Positions 8,020 through 9,322 of a stretch of 17,798 nt of DNA are shown here, piece by piece. The stretch is from the NCBI GenBank assembly GCA_017992005.1, contig JAGOPO010000016.1, positions 1-17,798 of the forward strand, read 5' to 3'. This DNA is from Minisyncoccota bacterium. GTDB lineage: Bacteria > Patescibacteriota > Minisyncoccia > 2-02-FULL-40-12 > GWA2-44-9. Position numbers and translations under genes: made by a program. The stretch's first letter is position 1. Each line of letters starts with the position of its first letter. The notes beneath the pieces were generated by a model. It was not told the origin of the DNA and did not search any database. It saw nothing but the letters and a program-made list of their open reading frames with translations.

Positions 8020-8457
8020 ATGAGATTCTACGTACCAAAAACAGTTCTCGGCTTAGCGATTATTGCCGCCTTTAGCGCATCGGCGCTAGGAGCGATTGCT
8101 TCAACCACCGAAGGCACTATCCAAACAGGAGTCATCACGGGCAACGGCGGTATTGGTGGCACCGTGGCAACCCCAGCCCCAACCCCAACACCTCCGCCAT
8201 CAGGCGGCGGTGGGGGAGGTGGCGGCGGTGGAGGCGGCGGAGGCGGGGGATCAGTTCTTACCCTAACCCCAACACCGTCGGGAACGCCGACTGGTTCGAC
8301 GGATATCAATAGCGATGGCCTGCTTGATTTACTCGACTTCAATATCCTGATTGCAAACTGGGGTTCAAGGCCAACTGATACGCGTGCTGATCTCAATCAT
8401 GACGGCGTTGTTGATATCTTTGACTTCAATCTCATGATTGCCGCTTGGACGCTCTAG
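8020..8457 (+). CDS. Small secreted dockerin-domain protein (145 aa): signal peptide, Pro/Thr plus poly-Gly linker, then one type-I-like dockerin module
   Basis: N-terminal MRFYVPKTVLGLAIIAAFSASALGA is a signal peptide. The linker is PAPTPTPPPS(G)16SVLTLTPTPSGTPTGS. Two canonical Ca-binding dockerin segments are present: DINSDGLLDLLDFNILIANWG and DLNHDGVVDIFDFNLMIAAW, each with the D1-N3-D5-D9-D12 pattern. It starts 5 nt after the giant gene stop. Confidence 0.7.
   Translation: MRFYVPKTVLGLAIIAAFSASALGAIASTTEGTIQTGVITGNGGIGGTVATPAPTPTPPPSGGGGGGGGGGGGGGGGSVLTLTPTPSGTPTGSTDINSDGLLDLLDFNILIANWGSRPTDTRADLNHDGVVDIFDFNLMIAAWTL
8203..8250 (+). repeat. Imperfect (GGN)16 tract encoding a 16-residue poly-glycine linker (its antisense reads as poly-Pro)
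   Basis: ggcggcggtgggggaggtggcggcggtggaggcggcggaggcggggga is visible in the sequence. The codons are mixed (GGC/GGT/GGG/GGA), so this is not a perfect microsatellite. Confidence 0.6.
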
Positions 8458-8470
8458 CTACTCTACGACT

Positions 8471-9322
8471 ATGAAAAAATTATCCATATTTCTTGTGGTG
8501 CTAGCTCTGTCGCTGGGTAGTAGCTCATCGGCATCCGCTTCCTCGAGCACGATCACTCTTTCTCCAGCGGCTAAGTCCGTAGCACCAGGACAGACAGTGA
8601 CAGTGAGTGTGCAGATTATACCTAACGGCTCAGAGGTCACCACGGTCAAAGCAAAAATCAGCTTCCCAGCCGATATTCTTGAGGTGCAGAAGTTTACATT
8701 TGGCGATGAATGGCTTCCACTTACTCAGCCAGGCTATAGCGTTACAGACAATGTAGGCGGACTCTTGGTGAGAACTGCAGGCTTCCCAGGTGGTCTAACA
8801 ACTGCAAAAACTCTTGGTACTATTGCCTTTCGAGTGAAGGCTGCTGGAAGTGCTAGCATTATTATCACAAGCGACTCCTTACTCTTGGATCCTACGAATG
8901 TAAATGTATTTTCCGCCAGCTCTGCTTCTATGCTTACAAGCGTGCAGACAGCGGCAACACCAGTTCCAGTGATAAATAAAACTATCGCGAAATCTGCATC
9001 GCCATCTCCAAGTGTTGTCGCGAGTTCTAGTTCAGAAATTGCTCTTGTGACAACGAGCGATCGAGAGGCGGCAATAGGTACATTCTTGGGTCTTGATGTG
9101 TGCTCGAGTGCCGGACAGACGACGTGGTGGATTACTATGTTTGGACTCGCTATATTCTTGATGTGGTTTGGACGAACACGTGGGTCGTATCCATTACTCA
9201 TTCTTGCGTATTTCGTTATTTGGGCACTCTGGGCCGTACAGATCTGTTCATTCGGATTTGCTTGGCTCCCAGCAATCTTGGGTGGTGTGAGCTGGCTTGT
9301 GGCAGTACCGCGCAAGTCGTAA
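8471..9322 (+). CDS. Cohesin-domain-like surface protein with a C-terminal multi-pass membrane anchor (about 283 aa from the MKKLSIFLVV start)
   Basis: Signal peptide MKKLSIFLVVLALSLGSSSSASA. A beta-rich segment of about 140 aa shows a cohesin-like pattern: VAPGQTVTVSVQIIP...KAKISFPADILEVQKFTFGDEW...GTIAFRVKAAGSASIIITSD. This is followed by a Ser-rich linker and then three hydrophobic helices: WWITMFGLAIFLMWFG, LLILAYFVIWALWAVQI and FAWLPAILGGVSWLVAV. The track ORF starts at 8438, but the ATG at 8471 immediately precedes the signal peptide. Confidence 0.6.
   Translation: MKKLSIFLVVLALSLGSSSSASASSSTITLSPAAKSVAPGQTVTVSVQIIPNGSEVTTVKAKISFPADILEVQKFTFGDEWLPLTQPGYSVTDNVGGLLVRTAGFPGGLTTAKTLGTIAFRVKAAGSASIIITSDSLLLDPTNVNVFSASSASMLTSVQTAATPVPVINKTIAKSASPSPSVVASSSSEIALVTTSDREAAIGTFLGLDVCSSAGQTTWWITMFGLAIFLMWFGRTRGSYPLLILAYFVIWALWAVQICSFGFAWLPAILGGVSWLVAVPRKS

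Follow-up and report, generated by a model that had tools for sequence, protein, structure and literature searches.

The 17,798-bp contig JAGOPO010000016.1 of a Minisyncoccota bacterium (NCBI GenBank assembly GCA_017992005.1), which in its full length is referred to here as the window, carries two adjacent open reading frames (ORFs) on the forward strand, 8020..8457 and 8471..9322 in the ORF list. They encode a small secreted dockerin protein and a membrane-anchored cohesin protein, respectively. We propose that this gene pair forms the anchoring part of a surface-display module of three genes, which is widespread in Patescibacteria and begins with the gene of a giant surface protein located directly upstream. 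The dockerin and cohesin identities of the two products are regarded as practically certain, and the full mechanism, in which the small protein acts as an adaptor between the giant protein and the membrane, is considered probable. A first-pass annotation of the window had interpreted the two genes as a minimal, self-contained cassette with a cargo-less dockerin. This interpretation is not supported, because the pair makes up only the downstream two-thirds of a module that begins with the giant-protein gene. The arrangement had also been called unusual, a word that needs tempering since it is common in Patescibacteria.

The small protein matches the Pfam model Dockerin_1 (PF00404) over residues 94-141 with 29.1 bits (cutoff 22.9, E 1.1e-6) and the NCBIfam model dockerin_GC with 29.4 bits (cutoff 29). 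It contains the two 12-residue calcium-loop repeats DINSDGLLDLLD and DLNHDGVVDIFD, with D or N at loop positions 1, 3, 5, 9 and 12, as in the duplicated F-hand segments of the family, where each loop leads into a helix. All 10 of the 10 Ca2+-ligand positions are thus occupied by D or N in the window, and across 27 orthologues they are 74-100% conserved. The top matches of the module among PDB sequences are dockerins, namely 2y3n_B (E 0.001), 5lxv_B and 2jnk_A/2ozn, all of them genuine and solved as complexes with cohesins. The dockerin call of the first-pass annotation, with a score above the Pfam threshold and intact Ca2+ ligands, is confirmed.

The start of the second gene was placed at ATG 8471 rather than at the upstream in-frame TTG 8438, because the ATG yields the 283-aa protein annotated by NCBI as KBC02_03285 (Candidatus Pacebacteria metagenome-assembled genome; 100% identity and coverage). 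The protein has a signal peptide at its N-terminus. Residues 30-149 match the Pfam model Cohesin (PF00963) with an E value of 3.5e-7 and 30.9 bits against a cutoff of 24.1, and the alignment spans positions 3-130 of the 139-position profile. The cohesin fold is a nine-stranded jelly-roll beta-sandwich. An AlphaFold2 model built from a 31-sequence alignment has a predicted local distance difference test (pLDDT) score above 90 over residues ~30-150. When it was compared with the PDB by Foldseek, ranks 1-30 were all solved cohesins. The best of them was 6kgf_C (E 6.6e-10, target-normalised TM-score 0.76), and the target-normalised scores to type I cohesins were 0.64-0.78, as is expected for a cohesin-type beta-sandwich superimposable on the solved ones. 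The earlier assignment of this gene to the cohesins is therefore borne out by both the HMM threshold (HMM, hidden Markov model) and the fold.

The cohesin is joined to the hydrophobic C-terminus by a Ser/Thr/Pro-rich stalk, and equivalent linkers are present in all orthologues of the transmembrane cohesin protein (cohesin-TM; TM, transmembrane). No match to SLH or Gram_pos_anchor was obtained for this protein in the domain-library scan. The first-pass annotation was right that the anchor is a C-terminal hydrophobic helix and not an SLH or sortase signal. Its count of three TM helices stands in part. Three segments, 217-234, 238-~259 and ~259-279, are seen in the hydropathy profile; the AlphaFold model shows two helices (218-236 and 241-259) and a low-confidence tail, and in 25 of 25 full-length orthologues the C-terminus consists of one TM helix with a basic tail behind it. 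The first helix of the window protein (217-234) together with RTRGS is the counterpart of this single helix and basic tail. Since the orthologues have one TM helix, the extra ~50 hydrophobic residues are regarded as a lineage-specific extension. This extension (9182..9307, forward strand, residues 238-279) comprises one or two additional putative TM segments and is absent from all 25 full-length orthologues. For the protein as a whole we infer an N-out/C-in topology.

Evidence for a larger unit comes from the comparison of loci. The order giant gC-bearing protein, dockerin protein, cohesin-TM, in which gC denotes the conserved terminal domain of the giant protein, recurs in more than 25 loci of Patescibacteria with unrelated flanking genes. 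Contexts were collected with the dockerin as seed (L001, L005 and L007), with the cohesin as seed (L004, L056, L057 and L058), and with gC as seed in a scan of one genome per GTDB species, which gave 45 loci (L011-L055). In the contexts of homologues of the individual proteins, the giant protein has 1,382-1,978 aa, the dockerin protein 132-218 aa and the cohesin-TM protein ~250 aa; the giants recognised as orthologous to that of the window and located upstream of the pair have 1581-1898 aa. The gC-bearing gene precedes the dockerin-cohesin pair in every locus examined. The window has the same gene order, and its three products are recognised by the family HMMs, the cohesin protein with an E value of 1.9e-63 and the other two with the values in Table 1. 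The pairing of dockerin and cohesin is not due to chance, because two independent above-threshold domains lie in adjacent genes and the pair recurs in more than 25 other loci. Of the 45 gC-seeded loci, 39 could be judged, since an adaptor gene was recognised downstream and the sequence extended far enough. A cohesin-TM gene comes next in 21 of 21 loci whose adaptor ends in a dockerin and in 0 of 18 loci with another adaptor (Fisher p 1.6e-11, for lineages that are not independent). One locus, L021, was counted as having the cohesin: the domain is masked by Ns, yet the stalk, the TM helix and the basic tail are visible.

The gC-seeded loci are nearly all labelled as Patescibacteria lineages, among them Paceibacterota/Parcubacteria, Kaiser-, Jorgensen-, Staskawicz-, Falkow-, Peregrini- and Gracilibacteria. 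A separate observation concerns the locus L055 (754..10068), whose bin carries the label of a DPANN archaeon, 'Candidatus Iainarchaeum'. It encodes a 2,579-aa gC-bearing protein and an adaptor-like protein with the N-terminal motif described below, a Cys-rich region, a Gly-rich run, DUF11, a TM helix of its own and a long basic tail. Either the module is shared across domains of life or the contig was binned wrongly.

The gene directly downstream of the gC gene encodes a family of adaptors with a common build. In the 39 loci its product has a signal peptide, a conserved N-terminal motif (N-motif), usually an Ig-like domain of the CHB_HEX_C_1/Fn3_assoc type, which was detected in 29 of 43 adaptors, and a poly-Gly run. 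The run has 5-24 residues and is near-universal in the adaptors of L001-L058, whatever module follows it; in the window it comprises 16 Gly (residues 62-77) with Pro/Thr-rich segments on both sides. The N-motif has the consensus SEVTGTLSTGVxTGxxGTV, and G32 and G47 in the window numbering are near-invariant among the 43 adaptors. In the window it corresponds to residues 28-49, STTEGTIQTGVITGNGGIGGTV. The small protein had been described as nothing but a signal peptide, a linker and a dockerin, a description that overlooked this motif. The domain-library scan of the window protein detected no recognisable globular domain other than the dockerin. The window lineage has lost the CHB_HEX_C_1 domain carried by most of its relatives. 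Short adaptors of this kind, in which the N-motif, the poly-Gly run and the dockerin are kept and CHB_HEX_C_1 is gone, are present in the window, L001, L021, L030, L032 and L035, corresponding to 6 of the 27 dockerin adaptors. Since the short forms retain the N-motif, the seemingly cargo-less dockerin protein of the window is no oddity; it is a reduced member of a larger family.

The C-terminal module of the adaptors is variable. Dockerin_1 is matched by 22 of the 43 related adaptors, and a dockerin is the C-terminal module in 21 of the loci. In 7 loci its place is taken by PG_binding_1 (up to 100 bits), in the gracilibacterial loci L045 and L049 by three SLH repeats, in L051 by a sorting signal consisting of LPSTG, a hydrophobic segment and basic residues, and in L055 by a direct TM tail; the modules of several loci were not identified. 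The non-dockerin adaptors retain the signal peptide, the N-motif, the CHB_HEX_C_1 domain and the poly-Gly run. Where they can be recognised, the swapped modules are all of envelope-anchoring types. It follows that the small protein has its constant partner in the gC gene and not in the cohesin, because the anchor modules swap while the N-terminal half stays beside gC genes in loci without a cohesin. The dockerin-cohesin-TM combination would accordingly be one interchangeable mode of fixing the adaptor to the envelope. Two recurrent end modules have no Pfam match. One, of ~150 residues with the motifs GAGERA...NGRWP, occurs in L018 (8508..9758), L043 (8482..9330) and L053 (1676..3115); the other, found in L037, L042 and L050, is built of tandem repeats GRILLQVE..GEAWYVNP...YYLG. 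From their position both are candidate new envelope-binding modules.

The giant protein of the window contains Ig-like repeats of the fn3, PKD, Big_13 and Pur_ac_phosph_N types. Its true start is probably slightly downstream of TTG 2078, ahead of the hydrophobic, signal-like AFVVSMIALLAGVGSAQA. The domain and sequence scan of this protein revealed no TM helix, LPXTG, SLH, dockerin or cohesin. The gC domain at its end is the sole region common to all big proteins compared. It lies either at the C-terminus, as in the window, or just after the signal peptide, as in L024, L025, L029, L032, L035 and L044; the adaptor gene trails the gC-bearing gene irrespective of which end carries gC. At E<=1e-30 the domain was found in at least 570 protein clusters, always in a terminal position, and the mean column identity of its alignment (A3) is 60%. 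No match to gC was found in Pfam, NCBIfam or the PDB sequences. The AlphaFold model of gC has a pLDDT of 90 and yields only weak fold matches. The best are to the N-terminal beta-sandwich of GH123 glycosidases, with modules of the CBM32/CBM6 type (CBM, carbohydrate-binding module) further down and many pilins among the matches. The possibility that gC is another cohesin was rejected, as the hhalign probability against the cohesin family is 0.3% and neither Pfam nor the PDB sequences gave a match. In a search with a synthetic joint profile of gC and cohesin (A4), no natural protein with both domains, which would be a Rosetta-stone fusion, was present among the matches listed. The gC family and the adaptor family are apparently undescribed so far.

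Taken together, these data suggest the following mechanism. The cohesin protein would be exported by the Sec pathway and retained in the cytoplasmic membrane by the TM helix at its C-terminus, the basic residues facing the cytoplasm, and the stalk of ~57 residues would keep the cohesin on the outer side. After secretion of the small protein, its dockerin, loaded with Ca2+, would bind the neighbouring cohesin. This contact is likely, given the chemistry of the cohesin and dockerin families and the co-occurrence of the genes. A flexible tether of Pro/Thr and poly-Gly would then separate the dockerin from the free mature N-terminus of the adaptor with its 22-residue motif. The N-terminal part, together with CHB_HEX_C_1 in most relatives, would hold the gC domain of the giant protein. 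The contact between adaptor and gC is the weakest step; gene linkage and module swapping tip the balance slightly in its favour. It would account for the anchor-less giant protein, for the adaptor gene tracking gC and for the position of the anchor at the other end of the adaptor. The net outcome would be a non-covalent link between the membrane and a giant fibre or adhesin.

How the adaptor might hold gC can be outlined only tentatively. In a plug-and-socket arrangement, which we regard as possible though rather doubtful, gC would be a socket capturing the free N-terminal tetrapeptide-repeat strand of the adaptor by beta-strand augmentation or by a complementation resembling donor-strand exchange. 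The swappable anchor would sit at the other end, and one version of it would have arisen by recruitment of the cohesin-dockerin pair to a bare membrane helix. Strand insertion as the mode of contact is speculation, suggested by the free, conserved N-terminus and the weak pilin-like fold matches.

Several points weigh against this mechanism. The window protein is remotely related to the characterised cohesins. When all PDB sequences were searched with a HMMER profile of five cohesin-TM orthologues, no solved cohesin was matched, and the assignment stands on the Pfam model and the predicted fold. The phylogenetic relatedness of the loci means that the counts overstate their independence. Among the 18 non-dockerin adaptors, about 8 have a terminal module of unassigned function, and the statement that all of these modules are anchors is supported in part. 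The contact between gC and the adaptor is argued solely from gene adjacency and module logic. Finally, CHB_HEX_C_1 is a domain commonly found with glycoside hydrolases, and the N-terminal part of the adaptor could therefore bind a glycan and not gC.

The last point leads to the chief alternative, in which the small protein is a glycan-binding adhesin or a wall-binding protein displayed on the membrane cohesin. Its N-motif and CHB_HEX_C_1 domain would bind a carbohydrate of a host cell or of the cell's own wall, the giant protein being co-expressed and attached otherwise, for instance by gC to the wall. Domains of the CHB_HEX_C_1/Fn3_assoc type are typically accessory domains of chitobiases. 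Their presence in more than half of the adaptors and the weak fold similarity of gC to the GH123 beta-sandwich and, at lower rank, to CBM32/CBM6-type modules both fit such a reading. For a Saccharibacterium, Wang et al. 2023 (PMC10633639) speculate that host glycans are the target of envelope proteins with dockerin, VCBS and fn3 domains, which points in the same direction. However, the six dockerin adaptors without CHB_HEX_C_1, including that of the window, keep the gene order and the N-motif. The anchor module would moreover be redundant if the adaptor served only to bind the cell's own wall, and no glycoside hydrolase is encoded within the module. We therefore consider the glycan-binding reading unlikely. 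The small protein could also be a cap, plug, regulator or free ligand of the membrane cohesin, with the giant protein as a mere neighbour. A dockerin as the sole recognisable globular domain of the window protein and the perfect dockerin-cohesin co-occurrence are what such a self-contained pair would predict. Against it, the giant gC gene lies ahead of the pair in every locus examined and in many unrelated flanking contexts, the N-motif is as strongly conserved as the dockerin and outlasts the loss of the Ig-like domain, and the same N-terminal half is fused to other anchors beside gC genes where the cohesin is absent. This makes an isolated docking pair improbable. The first-pass annotation had left the choice between such a pair and an adaptor or cap for a surface scaffold; the comparative data are best explained by the adaptor.

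Cohesins and dockerins are known above all as parts of cellulosomes, and the membrane cohesin might gather dockerin-bearing polysaccharide-degrading enzymes encoded elsewhere, the small protein being a minor or competing ligand. In support of such a miniature cellulosome, a dockerin-bearing GH5 cellulase is encoded beside three cohesin proteins on another Patescibacteria-like contig (L009/L010). Against it, neither a dockerin-bearing carbohydrate-active enzyme (CAZyme) nor a multi-cohesin scaffoldin with a CBM was found on the 17.8-kb contig, which encodes no CAZyme at all and one cohesin and one dockerin without a second copy of either. The cohesin protein has one cohesin and no CBM, and across the loci its gene always accompanies this one dockerin gene and is never beside a non-dockerin adaptor. 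A cellulosomal function is thus very improbable, and the surface-display module with an adaptor between gC and the membrane cohesin remains the preferred explanation.

The cluster on the other contig deserves mention in its own right. It comprises a GH5-dockerin gene followed by three cohesin genes, one of them encoding a dockerin as well (L009 5520..10083, L010 237..4629), and small ribosomal-protein genes lie on the same contig. It is a genuinely cellulosome-like mini-cluster and was reached through a distant cohesin match. In the literature on cohesins and dockerins in Patescibacteria or the candidate phyla radiation (CPR), no description of the gene set reported here was found. The protein SEML1_0315, an essential 'dockerin' protein of Southlakia epibionticum (PMC10633639), was considered as the same adaptor and rejected, having 927 aa and being flanked by a hydrolase gene and a tRNA gene.

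The features of the module in the window are listed in Table 1. The gaps within the three-gene unit are 5 nt and 13 nt, and the only strong terminator lies 3′ of the cohesin gene. Its hairpin (-28.4 kcal/mol, z -5.5) was also flagged on the reverse strand. The packing of the genes appears operon-like, and the hairpin is predicted to close the unit. No promoter is claimed, as a sigma-70 promoter scan of the window remained at chance level with 7 sites against 7.2 expected.

Table 1. Coordinates of the three-gene module and its parts in the window.
Feature	Coordinates	Strand	Details
Giant secreted surface protein gene	2078..8014	+	ORF of 1978 aa from TTG 2078; Ig-like repeats
gC domain, C-terminal end of giant protein	7619..8011	+	~135 residues, predicted beta-sandwich; family HMM E 4.1e-64
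Adaptor/anchor gene, 145 aa	8020..8457	+	Signal peptide, N-motif, linker, dockerin
Predicted adaptor signal peptide, residues 1-27	8020..8100	+	Cleavage AIA/S from sequence; aligns with family A-S-E cleavage region
Mature N-terminal motif STTEGTIQTGVITGNGGIGGTV, residues 28-49	8101..8166	+	Family alignment
Pro/Thr-rich linker	8167..8295	+	Gly16 run inside, 8203..8250
Dockerin module	8296..8445	+	Two Ca2+-binding loop-helix repeats; Pfam 29.1 bits; family HMM E 6.7e-27
Membrane-anchored cohesin gene, 283 aa	8471..9322	+	Pfam, AlphaFold2, Foldseek
Cohesin beta-sandwich, residues 26-159	8546..8947	+	Pfam Cohesin 30.9 bits; pLDDT >90; Foldseek
Ser/Thr/Pro-rich stalk, residues 160-216	8948..9118	+	Predicted disordered; pLDDT 43-76, without secondary structure
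Hydrophobic C-terminus of cohesin protein	9119..9307	+	TM1 217-234, RTRGS, then extension 238-279
Intrinsic-terminator-like hairpin	9330..9362	+	14-bp G+C-rich stem, then UUUU; 8 nt past cohesin stop codon

The genes around the module are housekeeping genes encoding a class II aldolase, ribosomal protein L25, release factor RF2, ribosomal protein S2, elongation factor EF-Ts and a tetratricopeptide repeat (TPR) protein. Two further observations were made in this region. The ORF 11989..14715 (+) encodes a 908-aa major-vault-protein-like protein with matches to the Pfam models MVP_shoulder (75.9 bits) and Vault_3 (40.7 bits). The gene is missing from the otherwise syntenic locus L001, in which the genes of RF2, L31 and S2 are adjacent, and so looks like an insertion. 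The RF2-like ORF 10726..11574 (-) has only 282 aa and aligns to the PCRF profile from position 100 on. Its N-terminal part is either missing or located in another frame, possibly owing to a programmed frameshift; the syntenic gene in L001 encodes 263 aa.

Much of bacterial diversity belongs to the Patescibacteria (CPR), which are believed to live attached to other cells. Most of their envelope proteins lack annotation, which has kept the building and anchoring of their surface structures largely obscure. The locus described here offers a concrete model, in which gC marks large surface proteins, adaptors carry swappable anchors, and the cohesin-dockerin pair serves as a membrane tether and not as an organiser of enzymes. 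The dockerin, the cohesin domain, and gC with the N-terminal peptide are three small, soluble parts that can be expressed and are suited to direct binding assays. If the contacts are confirmed, they would provide a handle for finding CPR adhesins genome-wide and orthogonal docking pairs for protein engineering. Should they fail, a non-cellulosomal cohesin-dockerin pair in a conserved operon would still remain. If the plug-and-socket arrangement proves true, it would add a new principle of protein-protein docking and give cohesin and dockerin a new physiological role in attachment-dependent epibionts.

The proposed module resembles several known systems and differs from each of them. Cellulosomal anchoring scaffoldins include SdbA, OlpB and Orf2p of Clostridium thermocellum, which combine cohesins with SLH, and ScaE of Ruminococcus flavefaciens, which has a cohesin and a sortase signal. 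Like them, the window protein is proposed to hold a dockerin partner at the surface by a single cohesin on an envelope-fixed stalk, and the solved cohesins among its fold matches include ScaE (2zf9) and OlpA and OlpC complexes. In contrast to SdbA and ScaE, its anchor is a C-terminal TM helix with a basic tail, neither SLH nor LPXTG, and the partner is a tiny adaptor instead of an enzyme-loaded scaffoldin, with no CBM and no CAZymes involved; the proposed cargo is a giant protein that is not an enzyme. CttA and ScaH of R. flavefaciens and ScaA of Acetivibrio cellulolyticus are non-enzymatic proteins attached to the cell via a dockerin-cohesin link. Structures of ScaH and ScaA are among the Foldseek matches of the cohesin. 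As in these systems, a dockerin-bearing, non-catalytic protein would join something else to an envelope-anchored cohesin. However, the known adaptors make their further connections via additional cohesins or a CBM in the same polypeptide, whereas the contact proposed here is between the short N-motif, with or without the Ig-like domain, and the terminal domain of a separate giant protein.

A use outside cellulose degradation is shared with the Clostridium perfringens modules, which are among the best sequence and fold matches and are represented by the cohesin-dockerin pairs of the toxin complex (2ozn/2jnk, 2vo8 and 2jh2). The C. perfringens modules sit in large glycoside hydrolases, and none has been described as a membrane anchor plus adaptor operon for a giant Ig-repeat protein. 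Non-cellulosomal cohesins and dockerins in general are reportedly widespread, as stated under the title 'Noncellulosomal cohesin- and dockerin-like modules in the three domains of life' by Peer et al. in 2009. The adaptor family further has, at the position of the dockerin, modules typical of Gram-positive anchors (SLH, PG_binding_1/LysM-type and LPXTG-sortase), to which the dockerin-cohesin-TM combination appears functionally equivalent. In Gram-positive bacteria these anchors belong to the displayed protein itself, while here the anchor is carried by a separate small adaptor. A last parallel is donor-strand complementation in chaperone-usher pili and archaeal cannulae or threads (PapE, FimG, Caf1 and CanX). 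These systems likewise combine a free N-terminal extension with an Ig-like beta-sandwich, and such pilins are found among the fold matches of gC.

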